A stretch of DNA of 11,235 nt from an uncultured Myxococcales bacterium (GTDB lineage: Bacteria > Myxococcota > UBA727 > CAYLZW01). The stretch is from contig CAYLZW010000198.1 in assembly GCA_964388085.1 (NCBI GenBank), positions 1 to 11,235 of the forward strand, read 5' to 3'. The notes beneath the pieces were generated by a model, which worked only from the letters and a program-made list of their open reading frames with translations, ran no database searches and was not told the origin of the DNA. This document shows positions 2,919 to 11,235 of this stretch, piece after piece (position 1 is the first letter of the stretch; the number at the start of each line of letters is the position of its first letter). A program made the translations under genes and the position numbers.

Positions 2919-3056
2919 TCACACCCCCGCAGCGACGGCGACGAGGACTTCACCGGCGACGCCGGCCCAACCCATGTTGCCGACGGTCACGACTTCGTGT
3001 CCGGCGAGGAAGTGCCGGAGGTCTTGCGGCAGGTTCTCGTCGAGCAAGAGCTTCAT
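2919..3056 (-). pseudogene. Truncated DUF5615 (Mut7-C/PIN-like putative toxin) remnant, 45 codons
   Basis: Minus-strand translation from the ATG at 3056..3054 gives MKLLLDENLPQDLRHFLAGHEVVTVGNMGWAGVAGEVLVAVAAGV*. The MKLLLDENLP...GH.V..V...G..G opening is the classic DUF5615 N-terminus. Full-length members are about 110 aa, whereas here a TGA falls after 45 aa. No homologous continuation appears in the other frames. The ATG overlaps the TGA of the upstream DUF433 gene (ATGA). Confidence 0.5.
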
Positions 3057-3277
3057 GCGCGGGCGACGAGCGCGGCTGCTTCGCTGCTGTGACGAGCGTC
3101 TTCCAGGACCGCGACGACCTGCTCACGGCGAACCGTGGGGAACTGCGCCAGGAAATAGTCGATCGTGTAGCCGGCCTCGAGATGATCGAAGAGCGCCTTC
3201 ACCGGAACGCGTGTGCCAGCAAAGCACGGCGTGCCACCGAGGACTTTCTCATCGGACCGAACGTGATCGCTGCTCAT
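3053..3277 (-). CDS. DUF433 domain protein (antitoxin-like partner of DUF5615)
   Basis: The 74-aa ORF contains KVLGGTPCFAGTRVPVKALFDHLEAGYTIDYFLAQFPTVRREQVVAVLE. This matches the DUF433 consensus (GG.P.i.GTRi.v..l...l..G.s.eei...yP.l....i.aal). Its stop forms an ATGA overlap with the DUF5615 remnant. Confidence 0.8.
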   Translation of the reverse strand: MSSDHVRSDEKVLGGTPCFAGTRVPVKALFDHLEAGYTIDYFLAQFPTVRREQVVAVLEDARHSSEAAALVARA

Positions 3278-3292
3278 CCGGAGATTCTAGCC
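3278..3292 (-). promoter_or_regulatory. Putative -10 element TAGAAT 6 nt upstream of the DUF433 ATG (candidate leaderless or short-leader promoter)
   Basis: The minus-strand sequence reads GGCTAGAATCTCCGG-ATG. The same TAGAAT-N6-ATG arrangement occurs upstream of the addiction-module antitoxin gene at 4737. The only two ATTCTA/TAGAAT hexamers in the window lie at these two positions. Confidence 0.35.
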
Positions 3293-3477
3293 TCCTGCCC
3301 GGTGACGCTCCAGCGCGCGGCGGCACCACGACACGGCGGCGTCTTCCAGGACCTACGCGACACCACCCGTCGCATTCCCATCCCATGACCCAGCGCGTCG
3401 TCAGATCCGCCACCCACCCTCCCCTCCACGCGCAACAATCAGCCTCCCCCAACGGACAGCGATCAGGAGGCCCTCAC

Positions 3478-4470
3478 ATGCGCGACGCCCACACCCCAGT
3501 CGCCAACCGCGGCAGCACCGATCGCACGCGGCTCATCCCCGCCCGCCGTCCGCCAACCCAGCGGAACAACGACAGAAACTGGGTCCAGACCCTGGAGGAC
3601 CTCCGGCAGCAGAGAGCCAAGCATCCCGAGCAAGCCGCCCTCGCCGTCATCGTCCAGCAGGCAGGCGAGCCCCGGCTTCGCACGAGGCTGCGCTTCGGCA
3701 GCCGCAACCACCCCATCGCCCTCAGCCTCGGGCGGCACACGTGCTGCGACCTGCCCGGCCTCCGGGACGCCAGCCTGCGGCATGCGCTCGTCCTCGCGTG
3801 GCCGAGCGCGGAGCACCCCGTGGAGGTCATCGACCTTCGCAGCAACACGGGGCTCGTCGTCTCCAGCGGCAAGAGCGTCGAGCGCCTTAGGGGGAGCGGT
3901 CCGATGCGTTTCACCGCCGGCAGCGACGAGGTCACCGTGCTGTACGCGGCGCCGAACGCTCCGCTCGAGATTGACCTGCCGCATGAGCTCGAGGGCTGGA
4001 TCGACATCGAGGAGCGGCGGATGCTTGGGGAGCTGTCCGACCGGCTCCCGAGCCCGCCGAAGACGAACCCTTCCTACGTCGTGCGGGACGGCGTCACGCT
4101 CGTGCGCGCCTGTGACGGGCGCGTGCTCGACGAGGGGCGGCACGAGGTCATCCGCGCGAGCGCGAGGCAGCTGCGCGAGGGGCTGCTGCTCGGGCGCTAT
4201 GAGCGCTGTGACAAGCACCTGATGTTCAGCTTCGATTCGGGGGTGTCGCGCGTGCATGCCTTCGTCGTCGAGCGCGAGGGGTCGCTGCACGTCGTGGACG
4301 TGGGGTCCAGCAACGGCACGTTCATTATCGACGCGCGCGACGGCCGGCCGCTGCGGGCGCTGGACGCGCCGTATCGCGCGCATTGCCTTGGGCCTCGGGA
4401 GCAGATTCGCATCGCTTCCAAGCGGGTGGCGATTGAGCTGCGGGCGGATGGGGGATGGTGGGTGAACTGA
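3478..4470 (+). CDS. Tandem FHA-domain protein
   Basis: The ATG at 3478 is preceded by AGGAGG (3465-3470) with a 7-nt spacer. The ORF-track extension back to 2974 overlaps DUF433 on the other strand and is rejected. The C-terminal segment LLLGRYERCDKHLMFSFDSGVSRVHAFVVEREGSLHVVDVGSSNGTFI carries the FHA signature (GR...CD..l....vSR.HA......g...v.DlgSsNGTf.n). A second, more degenerate FHA-like unit lies upstream: IALSLGRHTCCDLPGLRDASLRHALVLA...VEVIDLRSNTGLVV. The stop is TGA 4468-4470. Confidence 0.75.
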   Translation: MRDAHTPVANRGSTDRTRLIPARRPPTQRNNDRNWVQTLEDLRQQRAKHPEQAALAVIVQQAGEPRLRTRLRFGSRNHPIALSLGRHTCCDLPGLRDASLRHALVLAWPSAEHPVEVIDLRSNTGLVVSSGKSVERLRGSGPMRFTAGSDEVTVLYAAPNAPLEIDLPHELEGWIDIEERRMLGELSDRLPSPPKTNPSYVVRDGVTLVRACDGRVLDEGRHEVIRASARQLREGLLLGRYERCDKHLMFSFDSGVSRVHAFVVEREGSLHVVDVGSSNGTFIIDARDGRPLRALDAPYRAHCLGPREQIRIASKRVAIELRADGGWWVN

Positions 4471-4922: not shown

Positions 4923-5039
4923 ATGAAGCCAAGCGCCCTGCCCGAGCCGAGCGCCATCGATGACATGATAGCGCGCGTGCGTGCGGCGCTCGACGGTCGT
5001 GTCGACGTGGGCTTGGCGATCCTGTTTGGCTCCTTATGA
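4923..5039 (+). pseudogene. N-terminal remnant (38 aa) of an MNT-type minimal nucleotidyltransferase (antitoxin of HEPN/MNT pairs)
   Basis: Translation gives MKPSALPEPSAIDDMIARVRAALDGRVDVGLAILFGS-L-stop. The block ...V..A.LFGS is the conserved start of the GS-x-ARG-x(n)-SD-x-D nucleotidyltransferase motif. A TGA follows immediately, and the ARGE...SDID part is absent. It overlaps the first 59 nt of the FG-GAP ORF in another frame. Confidence 0.4.
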
Positions 5040-7104
5040 CGAGCGCGAGGCGAGCGGCTTCATCGTGCACGTGGGGGGTCCGCGCCCGGTCCTCGACAGT
5101 CAGGAGTGGGTCACGACCCAGAACCCGTACGGCTTCGAGCTCGGCGACGTGAACGGCGACGGGCACCTCGATCTGTGGCTGGCAGCGGACCCCACCAGCA
5201 TCCGACTCGGTGACGGCGTGAGCTTCTCCGACGGCCAGGAGCTCTACCACTGGGGCGCCGACGACACCCGACTGGTGGACGTCGACGGCGACGGCGATCT
5301 CGACGCGCTCTCGGTCGATGACTTCAGGGACAAGCTGCTCGTCTCGCGCAACAACGGCCACGGAAACTTCGGCACGCCCGCCGAGTACACGGTCGCCAAC
5401 GCCGCGCAGATCGCGCCGGGCGACTTCGACGGCGACGGCGACACGGACATTGTCATCCGCCAGAACCAATACGGCCCGGGCGAGCTGCTGCTTTATGTCA
5501 ATGACGGGCTCGGCGGCTTCTCACCCGGCGCCCCCGTCGGGGCCAGCGCGGCGGAAGTGCTCGTCACGGATCTCGACGGCGACGGCTACCCCGACCTCGT
5601 CTCGCTCAGCGGCCCGACCATCAGCACGCACTTCGCCGACGGTGACGGCACCTTCGTCGCCGGCCCGAGCTTCGCGCCGGCCGGCAGTCAGGACGTGCGA
5701 GGGCTCGACGTCGGCGACGTAGACGCGGATGGCGACGTCGACATCGTCAGCAACGGGCGCATCGGCTTCGACGGCTTCCGCTGGACGGTCCTGAACAATG
5801 GCGACCGCACCTTCGGCGCCCCGCTACAAGGCAGCGCCCCCTGGCTCGCGGAGCAGCTCACGCTCGGCGACGTGAACAATGACGGACGCGTCGACATTCT
5901 GTTCGATGGCGCCGGCGTGTACGTCGGCGACGGTAGCGGCGGCTTTGTCTCCTCAATGACCGTGTCGGGCGGAGCTGGCGGCGATCACGTGACGCTCCTC
6001 GACGTGAGCGGAGACGGCGTCCTCGACCTGCTGCACTCCTCGCTGCGAGCGGGCCGCTTCGGCGTGCAGCGCGGCTTCTGCGACGGCACCTTCGAGCGCC
6101 CCGAGGGAGCGCCGCTCCCCGCCCAGGCGTGGGCGCAGGCGCTGGCCGACTTCGACGGCGACGGCGACCTCGACTCTGCCGTCGGCCTACGCGACAGCGA
6201 CCTCAGCGTCGTGCTCTCGAACGACGGCGCCGGCGACTTCAGCGTCGGCAGCCCCTTCGCCATGGTGCACGACTGGGGCGTCATGGTGAGCGGTGACCTG
6301 AACGGCGACGGCCGCGCGGACCTGCTCTCGGGCGGCAGCAGCGGCGTGCACGCCATGCTCGGCGCCGCGGACGGCAGCTTCAGCACCGGCCCGGTGCACA
6401 GCACCGGCGCTCGCCCCATCACGCTCGAGCTCGCGGACGTCAACGACGACGGCCACCTTGATCTGCTCGCGGCGCACTACAACACGGGCCTCCTCACGGT
6501 CTCGCTCGGCGTGGGCGACGGCGACTTCCTTACGCCGGTCACCTCGCTGCCCATCGCCAACGGCGGAGCGGACGCCGCGCGCTTCGCCGACCTCGACGTG
6601 GACGGTCACCTCGACGTGGTCGCGCTGCTCGGCAACGGGCTGCGCGTCTACTGGGGCGACGGCGCCGGAGGCTTCGCCGCGAGCAGCGACTTCGCCATCA
6701 CGACCTACGCGGACGGCGAGTCGCTCGTCGTCGGTGACTTCAACGCCGACGGGCTGCCCGACGTGGCGGTCAGCACGGTGTGGGTGAACGCGGACCTCTT
6801 CATCCACTTCGGCGAGGGCGCCCGCGCGCTGTCGGACGCGACTCGGCTCGATATCCAGGCCGACTGGGTCGACAGCATGCTGGCGTTCGACGTGAGCGGT
6901 GACGGCGTCGATGACCTCGTCGTCTCGAACGTGAACGGGGTCGGCTTCAGCGTCTATGTCTCGGACGGCGTGGGCGGCTTTTATCCGCCCGTCGGCTACT
7001 GGAACCGCACCTGGGGCCTCGCCCAGGGTGACGCGGACGGCGACGGCATCGACGACGTCTGGTTCCTGCTGAACCACGACTCCCTCGGCGTGCTGCTGCA
7101 ATAG
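4981..7104 (+). CDS. FG-GAP/VCBS-repeat protein with 14 repeats (predicted two 7-bladed beta-propellers); start uncertain, possibly 5'-truncated
   Basis: There are fourteen DxDGDGxxDh Ca-binding-loop repeats spaced about 45-55 aa apart (GDVNGDGHLDLW, VDVDGDGDLDAL, GDFDGDGDTDIV, ...). Most are followed by an h.h.N.G.G.F half, which is integrin-alpha-type FG-GAP architecture. The frame is strongly GC3-biased for 2.1 kb. The only available start is GTG 4981. The 40 N-terminal residues have no hydrophobic signal peptide. Confidence 0.8.
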   Translation: MRRSTVVSTWAWRSCLAPYDEREASGFIVHVGGPRPVLDSQEWVTTQNPYGFELGDVNGDGHLDLWLAADPTSIRLGDGVSFSDGQELYHWGADDTRLVDVDGDGDLDALSVDDFRDKLLVSRNNGHGNFGTPAEYTVANAAQIAPGDFDGDGDTDIVIRQNQYGPGELLLYVNDGLGGFSPGAPVGASAAEVLVTDLDGDGYPDLVSLSGPTISTHFADGDGTFVAGPSFAPAGSQDVRGLDVGDVDADGDVDIVSNGRIGFDGFRWTVLNNGDRTFGAPLQGSAPWLAEQLTLGDVNNDGRVDILFDGAGVYVGDGSGGFVSSMTVSGGAGGDHVTLLDVSGDGVLDLLHSSLRAGRFGVQRGFCDGTFERPEGAPLPAQAWAQALADFDGDGDLDSAVGLRDSDLSVVLSNDGAGDFSVGSPFAMVHDWGVMVSGDLNGDGRADLLSGGSSGVHAMLGAADGSFSTGPVHSTGARPITLELADVNDDGHLDLLAAHYNTGLLTVSLGVGDGDFLTPVTSLPIANGGADAARFADLDVDGHLDVVALLGNGLRVYWGDGAGGFAASSDFAITTYADGESLVVGDFNADGLPDVAVSTVWVNADLFIHFGEGARALSDATRLDIQADWVDSMLAFDVSGDGVDDLVVSNVNGVGFSVYVSDGVGGFYPPVGYWNRTWGLAQGDADGDGIDDVWFLLNHDSLGVLLQ

Positions 7105-7264: not shown

Positions 7265-7348
7265 TCAGGGCAGGTCGTACTCGTGCCAGATGGCGAGGAA
7301 CGTCAGCACGGGTGCGAGCACGCCAATGATGCCCGCGAGCAGCGACAT
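7265..7348 (-). CDS. Possible small hydrophobic peptide (27 aa, single TM): MSLLAGIIGVLAPVLTFLAIWHEYDLP
   Basis: A short ATG-initiated ORF sits 178 nt downstream of the NadK-like gene on the same strand. 25 of 27 codons end in G/C, consistent with genuine coding in this genome. It could extend upstream via GTG/TTG to about 45-50 aa with a second hydrophobic segment. No family was recognised. Confidence 0.25.
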   Translation of the reverse strand: MSLLAGIIGVLAPVLTFLAIWHEYDLP

Positions 7349-7526
7349 GCCCAACCTGAAGGGACGATCGGTCTCGGCGACGAGACCGCGGATGCGGCTC
7401 AAACGAAAAGCATTCACAAAGCCGATGATCGCGAGAACCCGACGCCGACGAGGAACGCGGCGTCGAACGAGCCTCGCCACAAGCGCACGATGACGGCCGC
7501 GAGCTCCTGTTCTCCTGCCCTCGCGC

Positions 7527-8417
7527 TCACGACGGCACCAGCAGCCGCAGTCGCTCGTCCGCTGCCCGCACCGTGACGCGCTGGCCGTACGGAAGGGAGA
7601 TGCAGTCGCGCTCCAGTCCGTCACCGAAGAGCACACCGCGCTCCATCTCGCTCGTGAGCTCGAGCGAGCCGTCAGCGTCGAGCACGCCTTGGGTCAGCGA
7701 TACGCCGGTGGTCAGCGACGGGAAGGCCTCCCGCACGAAAAAGCACAGGCCCGGATCCTCAGCGCCCGGCAAGGGAATGGCATCTCGGCGTTCGAGCGCA
7801 ATGGAGCGTGCCCAGCCGGTTGCGCCGGTGCCGCTCGCTACGATGAGGCCGGACGACGAGTGCCGCTCCTCCCGCTCCTCGAACAGGAGGAGATAGCGCG
7901 CGCTCTGGTGCGAGGCGTGGCCGATGAAGATCTCATTCAGCGCCCTTAGCCTCTGTCCGTCGCTGGTGCTCGCCTCGACGAGCGTGCGCTCTTCGAGGAC
8001 AGCGCCGCCGTGGACGGCGGCCTCGAACAGCGCCCTCGCCTGCTCGGGCCGGTGCCGCACGAGGACGCCATCGTAGAGGCCGGGGTTGAAGCCAATGACG
8101 ATCTGCCGGCGGAGGTATTTGGCGACATTGGCCACGAGGCCGTCCTGTCCGACGCACGCGACCACGTCCTCGGGCTCGAACAGGAAGCGATCCAGGTCGG
8201 CCCGGCCCACGTGTGCGCGGCGCCAATCGAGCGGGATGCTCGAGAGCACCGCGTCGCTGGCGCCGCGCACGAGCGCGTGGCGTGCCTCGACGTCCTCGAG
8301 GCGCTGCCCGCGAGTCTCGAGGAAGAAGCGCGCCTGGCTCCGCGTGCCATGGCGGTCCAGCAGCTCCTCCAGCTCGGTGGGGCGCGTGACGACGACAGCG
8401 CGGGGAGGGAGGGCCAT
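7527..8417 (-). CDS. NAD(+) kinase homologue (ATP-NAD kinase/DAGK_cat fold), divergent motifs
   Basis: Collinear NadK blocks are present. DVVACVGQDGLVANVA aligns with D.vv.lGGDGT.L.aa. IVIGFNPGLYDGVL aligns with PilGIN.G.LGFL. ALNEIFI aligns with aLNEvvi. SGLIVASGTGATGWARSIA aligns with [21 protein letters not shown]. The C-terminal DADGSLELT...GDGLERDCISL...VTV aligns with DGq....gd.i.i..s. The start is set at ATG 8417 (MALPPRAVVVTRP), 1 nt after the TGA of the upstream SPFH gene. The ORF-track start at 8480 is rejected. Confidence 0.7.
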   Translation of the reverse strand: MALPPRAVVVTRPTELEELLDRHGTRSQARFFLETRGQRLEDVEARHALVRGASDAVLSSIPLDWRRAHVGRADLDRFLFEPEDVVACVGQDGLVANVAKYLRRQIVIGFNPGLYDGVLVRHRPEQARALFEAAVHGGAVLEERTLVEASTSDGQRLRALNEIFIGHASHQSARYLLLFEEREERHSSSGLIVASGTGATGWARSIALERRDAIPLPGAEDPGLCFFVREAFPSLTTGVSLTQGVLDADGSLELTSEMERGVLFGDGLERDCISLPYGQRVTVRAADERLRLLVPS

Positions 8418-8418
8418 A

Positions 8419-9441
8419 TCAGGCCTGCTCCTCGAGCCGCTTTGCGCCCGCGCTCGCCAGGCGCTGCAGGAGCGGCCCAATGACCTCGGAGCCCACTGTC
8501 AGGTGCTCGATGGTCTGCAGCTTGCCCGCGAGCTCGCGCGCGGCGAGCCCGAGCAGGGCGTCGGAGGGGAGCGTGCGATAGATGTCCATGCGCGCGCGCT
8601 CGGCCTCGACGCGGGCGCGCTCGGTGACCTCGGTGGCCGCCGCTTGCGCTTCGGCCGTGAGGCGCACATCGGCGGCCTTGGCCTCGGACGCCACTCGCTT
8701 GGCGCGCGCCTGCTCCTCGGCGCGGCGTCGCTCATTCTGTCCCTGCTGATCGATGAGCTTCTCCTCGCGGCGGGCGAGCTCGAGCTGGTTCGCGAGCTCG
8801 TTCTCGGCGATGGCGCGCTCCTTCTCGACCGCCAGCGCGCGGCGCTGAAAGGTGGCCTCGTCGGCGCGCTGCTGAATCGACTCCCGCGTCGGCATCTGCA
8901 GAGCGCGCTCCATCTCGGCGCTCGGCGCCACCTGCGCCACACGGGCGGAGACGATCTCGATGCCCATGGCCTCGAGGCCGCCATCCCGCAGCAGCCCCTC
9001 GTGCACGTCGGCGCGCAGTCGCGCGAGGCCCTCCTCGAGGATGAGCCCGAGCGGCTGCTGCGCGAGCCAGGCGGTGGCGAGCTGCTGCGCGAGCTGTGTC
9101 AGCAGCCCTGCCAATTGATCGAGCGGCTGCTCGAGGTACGTGCCGGTCTTCGTGTCGAGCGCGAAGCTCAAGCGCTGCGAGACGAGCTCGGGCGCGAGCA
9201 CGCGGTAGGTGATGACGCCCTGCACGACGACCTCCTGGAAGTCACGGCTGCGACCGTGAAACAGGAAGGGCACGTCGCGGTCGTCGAGCGGCACCTCGAG
9301 GAGGCTGGTGCCGAGCGGCAAAAACCAGAAGCTCAGCCCACGCCCCGCCCGCTTCACCTCGCCGTTCTTGACGTGCACCAGGTGGCTCGTGGGCTCCCCG
9401 CGCACGTGCCGAACGACTCCGAAGGACGACAGCTCTGCCAT
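8419..9441 (-). CDS. SPFH/band-7 (stomatin/flotillin-like) domain protein with Ala/Glu/Arg-rich coiled-coil tail, no N-terminal TM segment
   Basis: The start ATG at 9441 (MAELSSFGVV) is preceded by AGGAGG with a 6-nt spacer. The N-terminal segment VRHVRGEPTSHLVHVKNGEVKRAGRGLSFWFLPLGTSLLEVPLDDRDVPFLFHGRSRDFQEVVVQGVITYRVLAP fits the SPFH core pattern (v.v..ge.a.v...G.....pG.hf..P....v..v.lr......t.D...v.vd..v.yrv.dp). A long EA-rich helical region follows (AVEKERAIAENELANQLELARREEKLIDQQ...AEEQARAKRVASEAKAADVRLTAEAQAAATEVTERARVEAERAR), as in flotillin-like proteins. The 134-aa Arg/Ser-rich N-terminal extension in the ORF track is rejected as untranslated. Confidence 0.7.
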   Translation of the reverse strand: MAELSSFGVVRHVRGEPTSHLVHVKNGEVKRAGRGLSFWFLPLGTSLLEVPLDDRDVPFLFHGRSRDFQEVVVQGVITYRVLAPELVSQRLSFALDTKTGTYLEQPLDQLAGLLTQLAQQLATAWLAQQPLGLILEEGLARLRADVHEGLLRDGGLEAMGIEIVSARVAQVAPSAEMERALQMPTRESIQQRADEATFQRRALAVEKERAIAENELANQLELARREEKLIDQQGQNERRRAEEQARAKRVASEAKAADVRLTAEAQAAATEVTERARVEAERARMDIYRTLPSDALLGLAARELAGKLQTIEHLTVGSEVIGPLLQRLASAGAKRLEEQA

Positions 9442-9496
9442 CTCGCGCCTCCTGCTGTGGCGCCGCAGCGCCGTTGTCCGTGTCTCTCTCTCCCCA

Positions 9497-10252
9497 TCAC
9501 AGCGCCGAGCGACGAATGAAGCGGTACATCTCCGCCGGGCGGTACGCGACCTCGCGCTCGCGCTCGCCGGTGGCCTCGATGTGGCCGCTCGCGAGCATTC
9601 GCCGGCGAAAGGAATCCTTATTGAGCGCCTCGCCGCGAATGGCCTCGTGGACCTCCTGCAGCGCGCGCAACGGGAAGCTCTCGGGAAGCAGCTGGAAGCC
9701 GACCGGGCTGTAGTCGATCTTTCCGCGCAGCCGCTTGAGCGCCATGCCGAGGATGTCGGCGTGGTCGACGAACAGCGGCAGCTCCTCTCCGTCCGCCGTG
9801 AGCGCGCGCGCCGGGCCGCCGACCTCTCCCGGCCAGTCCGCACAGGCGAGCGCGCTCAAGGCGCCCCGCTCGGCCGCGATGGCTTCGAAGGCGGGCGGCG
9901 CCACCAGCGCATAATAGGCGACGGTGATGACGCGCGTCCGCGGGTCGCGCTTCACGCTGCCGAACGTGTACAGCTGCTCGAGGAACACTCCCTCGAGGCC
10001 GGCCTTCTCGCGCAGCACGCGGCGGGCGGCGTCGTCGAGTGACTCGGTAATGCAGACGAAGCCGCCGGGCAGCGCATAGCGCCCGCGCTGCGGTGGCTCC
10101 TGCCGGCGATAGAGCGCCACTTGCAAGCTTCCTTCGCGCACCGTGAGCACGACGACGTCGACCGCCACCGACGGCCGCTCAAAGGCGCTCGCGTCGTAGC
10201 TCGCGAGGAACGCGCGCTCAGCTGGATCAGGTTTGGGATGACGCTCGGCCAC
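9497..10252 (-). CDS. nrtR: NrtR-family Nudix-related transcriptional regulator (N-terminal ADP-ribose-binding Nudix fold with degenerate Nudix box + C-terminal winged helix)
   Basis: The C-terminal FPLRALQEVHEAIRGEALNKDSFRRRMLASGHIEATGE...RPAEMYRF closely matches the NrtR DNA-binding domain signature (F.l.eLQ.vYEaiLGk.ldK.nFRRk....g.iE.TGe....RPA.lYRF). The N-terminal SVAVDVVVLTV...LPGGFV...ARRVLREKAGLEG is a Nudix fold whose REx2EE box is degraded to RRVLREK. The GTG start at 10252 sits immediately after an in-frame TAA and has a GAGGT RBS. Confidence 0.8.
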   Translation of the reverse strand: MAERHPKPDPAERAFLASYDASAFERPSVAVDVVVLTVREGSLQVALYRRQEPPQRGRYALPGGFVCITESLDDAARRVLREKAGLEGVFLEQLYTFGSVKRDPRTRVITVAYYALVAPPAFEAIAAERGALSALACADWPGEVGGPARALTADGEELPLFVDHADILGMALKRLRGKIDYSPVGFQLLPESFPLRALQEVHEAIRGEALNKDSFRRRMLASGHIEATGEREREVAYRPAEMYRFIRRSAL

Positions 10253-10303
10253 TTAGATACCTCATGCATCTAAGTCTTATATGCGCTGTGTATCTAAGGC
10301 AAG
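10252..10303 (-). promoter_or_regulatory. Candidate NrtR operator/promoter: three copies of 9-mer half-site CTTAGATAC (10252-10260 direct; GCATCTAAG 10266-10274 and GTATCTAAG 10290-10298 inverted) with -10 TATAAG (10276-10281, minus) and -35 TTGCCT (10297-10302, minus)
   Basis: Read directly, CTTAGATAC-N5-GcATCTAAG forms a 23-bp near-palindrome, and a third perfect inverted 9-mer lies 15 nt further on. The half-sites overlap the start codon, the RBS, the stretch just downstream of the -10, and the -35/spacer of a plausible sigma70-like promoter. This is the classic arrangement for an autorepressor. The region is AT-rich relative to its surroundings. Confidence 0.45.
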
Positions 10304-10322
10304 CCGCGGCAGCGGATCTGTC

Positions 10323-11235
10323 TCACAACAGCCCGAGCGCGTGCGCCGCGCGGTAGGCGACGATGCGCAGGTGTCCGTCGCGCAGCAGCTCGGGAGCGCC
10401 GAGTAGCTCGCGCAATCTCACCCACAACAGCGGACACTCGCGCGCCGCGCGCACCTCGGCGGCGAAGGGATGCACCACCTCGGGGGTGGCGCCCGAGCTC
10501 GGGTGGTAGCGGCCGCCCAGCACGGTCAGCTCCCCTATCTCGACCCCGAGCGTGCCGAGCAGCTGCTCGCGCAAGAAGCGCTCGGCGGCGCTCATGCCGT
10601 CGACGTCGACGGGCAGGCGCCAGGCGGGCGCGCTGAGCAGGTCGCTGTTGCCCGTGATGCACTGGGCCGCCGGGTGGTCGCCGTCTTCGATGCCGATGTA
10701 CACGTCGGTCGCGTTACGCCAGAGGAGCGCGAGCGACGCCGTGCGCACGCTTCGGGTGCGAGGCTCGACGTACTCGAAGGTCTGGCTCGCGAGCACGCGG
10801 CCTTCGGCGTCGAGCTCGTCGAAGCGACGGCAGCGCACTTGCAGAAAGCCGCTCGAGGCCGAGCTGTCCACGGGCTCGAAGGCGCGGCGCGCCGGTCGAC
10901 GGGCGAGCGTGTCGACGGTAGTGATGCGGAGGCGCGCCTTGTCCTTCGACTCCGGGAGGGCGAGCTCGGCGCCGATCCACGGGCCGAGATCTTTGCCGAG
11001 GTGCGCCAGCAGCGCATAGACATTGAGCTCGAGCCGTGCGTCGGGCAGGCCGCCGACCTGCGCGGCGCGCAACAGTTGGCGCGCCTCCACCGCCGCCACG
11101 CGCCCTGACGTCGAGAAGCCGGAGCTCGCGGGCACGTCGCGCTGCACGAGCACGGGCTGCATGCGCACCCACATGGAGCGCACCTCCTCGCGCAGGCCGC
11201 CGGGCGACAGGTAATAGGTGGCGCCCGGCGTGAAC
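10323..11235 (-). CDS. NudF-like (ADP-ribose pyrophosphatase fold) Nudix-family protein with degenerate catalytic box; 5' end outside window
   Basis: The C-terminal half aligns with E. coli NudF-type ADPRases. LLSAPAWRLPVDVDGMSAAERFLREQLLGTLGVE aligns with LLEmvAGmiEeGEsvEdvArREaiEEaGl, with the catalytic EE replaced by LG. GGRYHPSSGATPEVVHPFAAEV aligns with sFlaSPGgtsErssimvgEV / yySpGfsdE.ihlFlA. The reading frame stays open to the window edge (...ATYYLSPGGLREEVRSMWVRM...), so the true start is beyond 11235. The stop is TGA 10325-10323. Confidence 0.55.
   Translation of the reverse strand, partial: FTPGATYYLSPGGLREEVRSMWVRMQPVLVQRDVPASSGFSTSGRVAAVEARQLLRAAQVGGLPDARLELNVYALLAHLGKDLGPWIGAELALPESKDKARLRITTVDTLARRPARRAFEPVDSSASSGFLQVRCRRFDELDAEGRVLASQTFEYVEPRTRSVRTASLALLWRNATDVYIGIEDGDHPAAQCITGNSDLLSAPAWRLPVDVDGMSAAERFLREQLLGTLGVEIGELTVLGGRYHPSSGATPEVVHPFAAEVRAARECPLLWVRLRELLGAPELLRDGHLRIVAYRAAHALGLL

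Follow-up and report, generated by a model that had tools for sequence, protein, structure and literature searches.

NrtR-family regulators join a Nudix domain to a winged-helix domain, and their published sites are 21-bp palindromes. These sit on promoter elements or in the stretch from promoter to start codon, which implies repression. Sites of SoNrtR and of the Synechocystis NrtR were validated by electrophoretic mobility shift assay (EMSA) in the survey of Rodionov et al. (2008), and a TG-N7-CA core (also written GT-N7-AC) is found in 12 of the 18 published groups, typical but not obligatory (PMC2330246). The Bacteroides araMPRDAB operon has two tandem semipalindromic 21-bp AraR sites 3 bp apart, for which EMSA gave complexes of one and two dimers (PMC4666351). 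MsNrtR of Mycobacterium regulates itself through a palindromic site in its promoter, and ADP-ribose relieves this binding (PMC6800001). Here we describe a putative operator of this family in contig CAYLZW010000198.1 of an uncultured Myxococcales bacterium, a stretch of 11,235 bp that we call the window. It fills an AT-rich gap upstream of nrtR, the first of three genes that also include an SPFH/Band-7 gene and a NAD-kinase-like gene. We conclude that this gap is very probably the autoregulatory promoter-operator of the nrtR/SPFH/NAD-kinase-like operon.

The locus follows the NrtR family in that a Nudix and winged-helix regulator adjoins its own 21-bp palindromic site, with a clade core of TG-N7-CA; the comparison with published motifs that an earlier note on this DNA had called for gave agreement in symmetry and core (PMC2330246). 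The placement is also that of the family, with one of two predicted sites (O1) over promoter-like hexamers and the other (O2) between the putative promoter and the start codon. As in the BtAraR system, two tandem 21-bp sites stand 3 bp apart before the operon. MsNrtR instead uses one 23-bp palindrome, GTTTTCGA-N7-TCGAAAAC, between nrtR and nadABC, whereas the window has two sites, of another sequence and before another operon. The window also departs from published NrtR systems in its predicted targets, which are SPFH and NAD-kinase-like genes rather than genes of NAD biosynthesis or salvage, in a half-site, TTAGATGC, that was found in no description searched, and in a regulator that scores 163 against an equivalog cut-off of 400. 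Judged by these comparisons, the window element is an NrtR-family operator that would work like the BtAraR tandem operator, without the BtAraR recognition code. The literature searched, which did not cover the site tables of the 2008 survey or RegPrecise, held nothing relevant on SPFH with NAD kinase and NrtR/Nudix or on the motif, and the clade motif, its two architectures and the SPFH/NAD-kinase-like target pair did not appear in it.

Two palindromes in the gap upstream of nrtR

The gap spans 70 nt, the length first given for it, from the stop codon of the upstream gene (10323-10325) to the GTG of nrtR (10252-10250). On the gene (minus) strand it reads TGA-GACAGATCCGCTGCCGCGGC-TTGCC-TTAGATAC-ACAGC-GCATATAA-GAC-TTAGATGC-ATGAG-GTATCTAA-GTG. 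Its description as the sole AT-rich patch nearby held, with a GC content of 0.53-0.56 in intervals across 10200-10349 against 0.66-0.81 in the rest of 8200-11235. The earlier note had counted three copies of a 9-mer, CTTAGATAC, in the gap. All three sites are present (Table 1), but just two match exactly, on opposite strands, and the third, CTTAGATGC, has one mismatch. The claim that the motif occurs nowhere else was borne out: the window holds zero further matches with one mismatch or fewer (chance expectation 0.20), and three matches were reached in 0 of 200 dinucleotide shuffles.

A fourth half-site, GCATATAA, was absent from that count; it had been taken for a -10 element alone and is also the inner half-site of O1. 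The four half-sites make up two 21-bp palindromes, O1 and O2, with a gap of 3 bp and a centre-to-centre distance of 24 bp, so the actual unit is two predicted dimer sites rather than three 9-mers. A repeat finder independently returned two mutually similar 23-nt units, as well as a perfect 8-nt inverted repeat in the O2 region (10251-10258 with 10268-10275). Two overlaps ascribed to the 9-mers also need revision. The hexamer TATAAG sits between two 9-mers, within the GCATATAA half-site, and the overlap with GAGGT (10263-10259) is partial, this pentamer falling for the most part between the half-sites of the second palindrome, in its 5-bp spacer.

Orthologous loci give the same element. A scan of one genome per species yielded 80 loci encoding NrtR relatives, about 55 of which form a clade with NrtR proteins 49-69% identical to the window protein, in genomes labelled Myxococcota/Deltaproteobacteria, Planctomycetota, Actinomycetota, Chloroflexota, Deinococcota, Acidobacteriota, Eremiobacterota and Alphaproteobacteria. 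We built a symmetrised 21-bp position weight matrix (PWM) from 42 orthologous loci, with the window left out. It scores O1 at 28.7 bits and O2 at 27.0 bits, against a training-site median of 30.2, while no other position in the window exceeds -3.5 and the maximum over 300 shuffles is 20.1. Across the 80 loci, sites of at least 14 bits lie directly upstream of the first cassette gene in 53 of the 54 clade loci scanned, which represent at least eight phyla, and stray matches of that strength number one in 596 kb. The loss of the repeat from orthologous loci with conserved genes, which had been named as evidence that would speak against an operator, is thus not the pattern seen.

The clade consensus reads TTnnATGC-N5-GCATnnAA, palindromic over 21 bp and with TG-N7-CA at its core (T 0.95, G 0.87 and C 0.84 at positions 6-8, mirrored at 14-16). 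Upstream of the first cassette gene, the ortholog element runs TTGAC, TTnnATGC, N5, GCATATATGC, N5, GCAnnnAA and then GGAGG...ATG. In most orthologs two 21-bp palindromes are fused through a central GCATATATGC, sharing an ATAT there, and their centres stand 15 bp apart (46 site pairs), and the clade operators of L002-L054, most of them fused in this way, have a common half-site consensus, an abutting TTGAC and a downstream cassette. Half-sites are kept across phyla while the 5-bp spacers vary, in an array that is 15-bp periodic and abuts the -35 element. A layout of separate palindromes is found in the window and in L001, L010 and L005, the last three with spacings of 23, 23 and 25 bp. These four operators align column for column, O1 falling on the first site of the tandem operators of the three relatives. 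Among full-length relatives in the scan, L001 is the closest, at 64% identity over residues 1-251.

The copy number of the operator unit varies. Three overlapping 21-bp units with a strict 15-bp period occur in L003, L006 and L024, and L044 has an apparent third unit, with the central element present twice 15 bp apart; units in these arrays overlap by 6 bp.

The position of the site also follows the operon rather than the regulator gene. In L029, L039 and L041 the site is upstream of the SPFH gene and nrtR is the last gene, while L009 and L022 have it between nrtR and the SPFH gene. Because the site tracks the start of the operon when gene order differs, the cargo genes, and not nrtR alone, appear to be its target. 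Conservation around these loci is confined to nrtR, the SPFH gene and the NAD-kinase-like gene, which occur together in 43-45 of them with unrelated flanks; gene by gene, the SPFH gene adjoins nrtR in about 45 loci and the NAD-kinase-like gene is found in about 43. With these three genes alone conserved around the site, NrtR is the sole regulator that travels with the motif.

The sites coincide with a putative promoter. The pentamer TTGAC stands at a fixed offset in 27 of 43 orthologs, and the TTGCCT that takes its place in the window is also found in L027. As the TTGACN-15-TATATG geometry recurs in 25 orthologs, we take TTGCCT-15-TATAAG to be the promoter, with a transcription start predicted near 10269. 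O1 touches the -35-like hexamer and spans the spacer together with five of the six -10-like bases. O2 would cover about -4 to +17 relative to the predicted start; it takes in that start, the Shine-Dalgarno sequence and the base preceding the GTG, ending 1 nt before it. The GTG itself is supported by L213, an independent assembly of the same organism in which nrtR is also called at 251 aa.

Table 1. Positions of the predicted operator, promoter and operon features in the window (forward-strand numbering; promoter elements are putative).
Feature	Position	Strand	Description
O1	10277..10297	-	TTAGATAC-ACAGC-GCATATAA; top PWM position in window
O2	10253..10273	-	TTAGATGC-ATGAG-GTATCTAA; PWM rank 2 in window
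Outer O1 half-site with flanking C	10290..10298	-	CTTAGATAC, exact
Inner O1 half-site	10277..10284	-	GCATATAA on gene strand, TTATATGC on plus strand; corresponds to the central GCATATATGC element of orthologs
Upstream O2 half-site	10266..10274	-	CTTAGATGC, one mismatch
Downstream O2 half-site	10252..10260	+	CTTAGATAC, exact and in inverse orientation to the gene, sharing its last base with the G of the GTG start
-35-like hexamer	10297..10302	-	TTGCCT; putative, same position as TTGAC of orthologs
-10-like hexamer	10276..10281	-	TATAAG; putative, 15 nt downstream of the -35-like hexamer
Shine-Dalgarno sequence	10260..10263	-	GAGG, 7 nt before GTG, mostly in O2 spacer
nrtR	9497..10252	-	251 aa, GTG start; Nudix-like sensor domain and NrtR winged-helix domain
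SPFH/Band-7 protein	8419..9441	-	340 aa, ATG after AGGAGG; second gene, 55 nt past nrtR
NAD-kinase-like protein	7527..8417	-	296 aa; third gene, starts 1 nt past the SPFH stop

Recognition helix, putative effector pocket and proposed mechanism

The recognition helix reads N-K-D-S-F-R-R-R across the 55 clade loci, with the NKD type in 49. The upstream motif of the clade is of the ATRC-N5-GYAT type, and GTGT-N7-ACAC occurs in none of these 49 loci. The 25 more distant homologues have the helix D-K-R-N-F-R-K together with an intact Nudix box (RE..EE), and here GTGT-N7-ACAC occurs in 7 and ATRC-N5-GYAT in none. DKRNFRK is the helix of BtAraR, whose crystal structure shows GTGT/ACAC read by K179, R180, N181 and K184, with Arg180 intercalating (PMC4666351). 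The window helix, NKDSFRR, differs from it at two of these residues (R180 to D, N181 to S) and faces a core of ATGC/ATAC; only the tandem 3-bp layout is common to both systems. Helix type and operator core change together between clades, no other regulator travels with the motif, and the consensus matches the published family; on these three grounds we infer that NrtR reads the operator. The proposal of an autoregulatory NrtR operator is therefore supported, as predicted binding, by the ortholog PWM, by conservation across the clade, by the TG-N7-CA core and by this covariation.

Other specificities are visible at the edges of this set. Some of the more distant loci (L055-L080, for example L057, L063, L069 and L079; 43-50% identity) carry a second motif class, TTAGTGT-N7-ACACTAA, often in tandem behind TTGAC and present in 7 of 25 by the strict pattern. 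The alphaproteobacterial loci L031, L037, L048 and L058 have a variant upstream element rich in TATTAGATAT/ATATCTAATA. Their helices are altered where examined (AKPAFRRK in L058), and they may represent a third specificity variant.

The nrtR product, encoded beside the site, matches Pfam NrtR_WHD at its C terminus (7.3e-21) and NUDIX at its N terminus (5e-10). Its closest solved relatives are BtAraR (1.7e-36) and SoNrtR (2.3e-27), both full-length PDB matches. By domain architecture we place the protein in the NrtR family, and not as an equivalog of the characterised ADP-ribose (ADPR)-responsive NrtR.

An intact Nudix box follows the consensus GX5EX7REUXEEXGU. In the window protein it reads G-FVCIT-E-x7-RVLREKAGL, where the E after R has become V and the second E of EE has become K, and this is not the intact box of an active Nudix hydrolase. 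The degenerate form (RVxxxK) is clade-wide, with V/L/A/I and K in 53 of 55 loci. A Nudix-like domain without its catalytic glutamates is probably a sensor. Five of the six ADP-ribose contacts of SoNrtR are kept (Tyr10, Phe15, Arg41, Lys76 and Arg98, as Y19, F24, R50, K83 and R105), in keeping with ADP-ribose as the expected anti-repressor of the family. BtAraR, by comparison, senses L-arabinose and has no nucleotide cleft; in the window protein, phosphate and adenine contacts of the SoNrtR type are retained. Sister loci with the same regulator and operator carry genes for ADP-ribosylglycohydrolase, NADAR, microbial-type PARG, NadR-like and PnuC proteins. With the catalytic glutamates lost, five of six contacts kept and ADP-ribose/NAD cargo at sister loci, the inducer is likely to be ADP-ribose or a close NAD-derived nucleotide.

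The sequence analysis shows the sites with their statistical support, conservation and position, the identity of the regulator and the tie between helix type and motif type. From these comparisons we infer NrtR binding, the promoter elements, the transcription start, the direction of regulation and the effector, and they suggest the following mechanism. Each of O1 and O2 would bind one NrtR dimer through its winged-helix domains. The dimer on O1 would cover the -35/-10 region; that on O2 would mask the transcription start and ribosome-binding site and reach the edge of the start codon. With both in place, RNA polymerase would be blocked and NrtR would repress its own operon. The catalytically degenerate Nudix-like domain would act as the sensor, and on binding ADP-ribose or a close NAD-derived nucleotide NrtR would release the DNA, inducing the operon.

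Points against and other explanations

Several observations weigh against an NrtR operator of this kind. One half of each window site has TA in place of the consensus TG/CA, at a position where the frequency of A is 0.10; each site thus pairs one TG/CA half with one TA half, and the TA variant is also found in L007, L030, L034 and L044. A promoter/terminator consensus scan of 7300-10500 was empty, with no canonical sigma-70 promoter; no promoter was called because the 15-nt spacer falls outside the 16-18 nt range of the scan. Within the clade, half-site positions 3-5 track no change in any winged-helix residue, a comparison that is uninformative because the NKDSFRRR helix is invariant and no wing residue tracks the variants. 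In the Nudix-like domain, E52 takes the place of the SoNrtR phosphate contact Asn43, which leaves room for an effector other than ADP-ribose itself. The window protein scores 163 bits (E = 8e-48) against NCBIfam NF050029, the equivalog model for the ADPR-responsive repressor NrtR, for which the cut-off is 400. Lastly, the same composite motif precedes six PadR-family genes in metagenome contigs, and the sequence is thus not unique to NrtR loci.

This last point opens the possibility that a different winged-helix regulator encoded elsewhere, such as one of the PadR family, binds the palindromes and that NrtR is a passenger, which we consider very unlikely. A metagenome scan for the composite pattern gave 120 hits. 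About 45 lie beside a clade nrtR; six have a PadR-family neighbour, one a PARG-like and one a DUF4291 neighbour, and many others look like chance matches or belong to a low-GC repeat. In the six PadR cases, TGC-N5-GCATATATGC-N5-GCA and a nearby TTGAC lie directly upstream of the PadR gene, which is paired with a MacB/FtsX-type permease, on contigs without nrtR. However, these loci have no outer TTAGATGC-type half-sites, and their TTGAC lies 3 nt further away. Searches by tblastn with two PadR proteins taken from contigs that bear the motif (E <= 0.01) found no PadR-like gene in the window or in L001-L080, whereas more than 50 loci with unrelated flanks pair the motif with NrtR and with no other regulator, and the NrtR recognition helix shifts with the motif core between clades. 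The PadR motif could reflect convergence, a shared specificity of two winged-helix families or membership in an NrtR regulon.

The PadR contigs (L090, L094, L098, L125, L140 and L153) have the motif in the form ATGC-N5-GCATATATGC-N5-GCAT with a nearby TTGAC, and in L153, L140 and L090 the PadR genes are followed by large MacB_PCD/FtsX permeases. The low-GC repeat (about 0.44), TGCTTCCAGCATATATGCTGGAAGCA, recurs almost unchanged and with conserved flanks in a dozen metagenome contigs (L088, L096, L103, L105, L117, L147, L154, L157, L158, L176, L183 and L200); it is unrelated to the NrtR cassette and matches the pattern fortuitously. A scan of viral contigs for the composite pattern gave 12 matches, none with NrtR, SPFH or NAD-kinase-like homologues, and thus no sign of a phage-borne cassette.

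Action at the level of RNA, in which an O2 hairpin in the leader of the mRNA would mask the Shine-Dalgarno sequence together with the start codon for translational control or transcript stabilisation, is just as improbable. A 41-nt stretch with O2 does form a hairpin (10 bp, -12.4 kcal/mol) whose loop and 3' arm hold GAGG, but at a z-score of -2.1, and with 5 of 200 shuffles folding at least as well, its margin over shuffled sequence is slight. From the putative promoter, transcription would begin within the left arm and the transcript would lack part of the hairpin; O1 and the sites of the orthologs are placed on the -10 or upstream of it. The conserved feature is instead one of 15-bp periodic half-sites with variable 5-bp spacers abutting the -35, which is the geometry of an operator.

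AT-rich intergenic promoters are frequent in high-GC genomes, and the surrounding region, at about 70% GC, has no other AT-rich stretch, but a chance or promoter-related patch (UP-element-like) with no specific regulator is the least probable explanation of all, given the three copies that no shuffle reached, two PWM matches of at least 27.0 bits against a shuffle maximum of about 20, and palindromic half-sites kept across phyla while spacers vary; the shuffles and the PWM exclude chance alone.

The operon, its neighbours and what they may mean

We return to NrtR as the probable regulator of the three-gene operon. Within the 11,235-bp contig, the visible regulon is essentially the operon itself: nrtR, the SPFH gene and the NAD-kinase-like gene, which L213 calls identically at 251, 340 and 296 aa. 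The NAD-kinase-like protein matches NCBIfam NAD kinase models down to 4e-9, all far under cut-off, and NADK2 in the PDB (2e-6); P0001 is a 100% match over its 296 aa. Pfam gave no match for this protein at E <= 5, and the link to NAD kinases therefore comes from the NCBIfam and PDB sequence searches. In its sequence GQDG replaces GGDG, and GTGATGW replaces the Gly-rich NAD kinase motif. Relatives in the protein collection number 7,165 at E <= 1e-5, maybe including canonical NAD kinases, and many are annotated as NAD kinase or hypothetical.

Alternative cargo stands behind the same NrtR clade and operator in L016, L036, L045, L051, L023, L030 and L040. It also includes a nucleoside deoxyribosyltransferase-like protein and, in L023, L030 and L040, two uncharacterised proteins with an adenylosuccinate-synthetase-like gene. 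Two further loci have the operator only: in L108 it stands before a PARG-like gene, and in L112 before a DUF4291 gene.

The frame upstream of the operator (10323-11235, -) stays open up to the final base. It represents the 3' portion of a methyltransferase-domain gene that the contig end truncates here and that is complete, at 726 aa, in L213. We rejected it as an operon member, as homologues lie near nrtR in just 2 of 80 loci: homologues of its C-terminal region were within 2.5 kb of nrtR in L019 and L040 only. PADLOC searches gave no match for this frame, nor, at E <= 0.01, for NrtR, the SPFH protein or the NAD-kinase-like protein.

Candidate defence or toxin-antitoxin genes lie at the other end of the window. 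A DUF5131 protein (138-881, -) matches the PADLOC candidate-system models PDC-M41B and PDC-M30B (E = 6e-111), and an AbiEii-like nucleotidyltransferase toxin (962-1912, -; Pfam 7e-06, PADLOC 1e-05) is preceded by an unannotated 339-aa frame (1800-2819, -). Between these genes and the NrtR cassette, on the opposite strand, are genes for an FHA-domain protein (2974-4470, +) and a large FG-GAP-repeat protein (4981-7104, +), apparently unrelated to the operator.

An operator before an autoregulated repressor gene is what specialists would expect. Beyond this, the locus offers a motif for an uncharacterised NrtR clade, with TTAGATGC-N5-GCATCTAA units in 15-bp-period arrays or in sites 23-25 bp apart. 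It also points to a candidate regulon, an SPFH protein with a divergent NAD-kinase-like enzyme, whose conservation extends from Myxococcota to Deinococcota, Planctomycetota and Actinomycetota. The pairing of NKDS helices with ATGC and of DKRN helices with GTGT is a natural recognition-helix pair for studying change of specificity in the NrtR winged helix.

A bolder reading, which we hold only tentatively and consider unlikely, is that the operator controls a self-contained cassette that has moved between phyla and responds to NAD cleavage, by triggers such as toxins, ADP-ribosyltransferases or abortive-infection effectors, with an ADP-ribose-sensing, dead-Nudix NrtR inducing an SPFH membrane scaffold and a divergent NAD-kinase-like enzyme. 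Sister cargo of PARG, ADP-ribosylglycohydrolase, NADAR and DUF4291 genes fits such a role. If true, the operon would be an undescribed NAD-damage or conflict response module, and not a housekeeping regulon of NAD homeostasis. The finding makes NrtR binding, the effector and the function of the two cargo genes directly testable.

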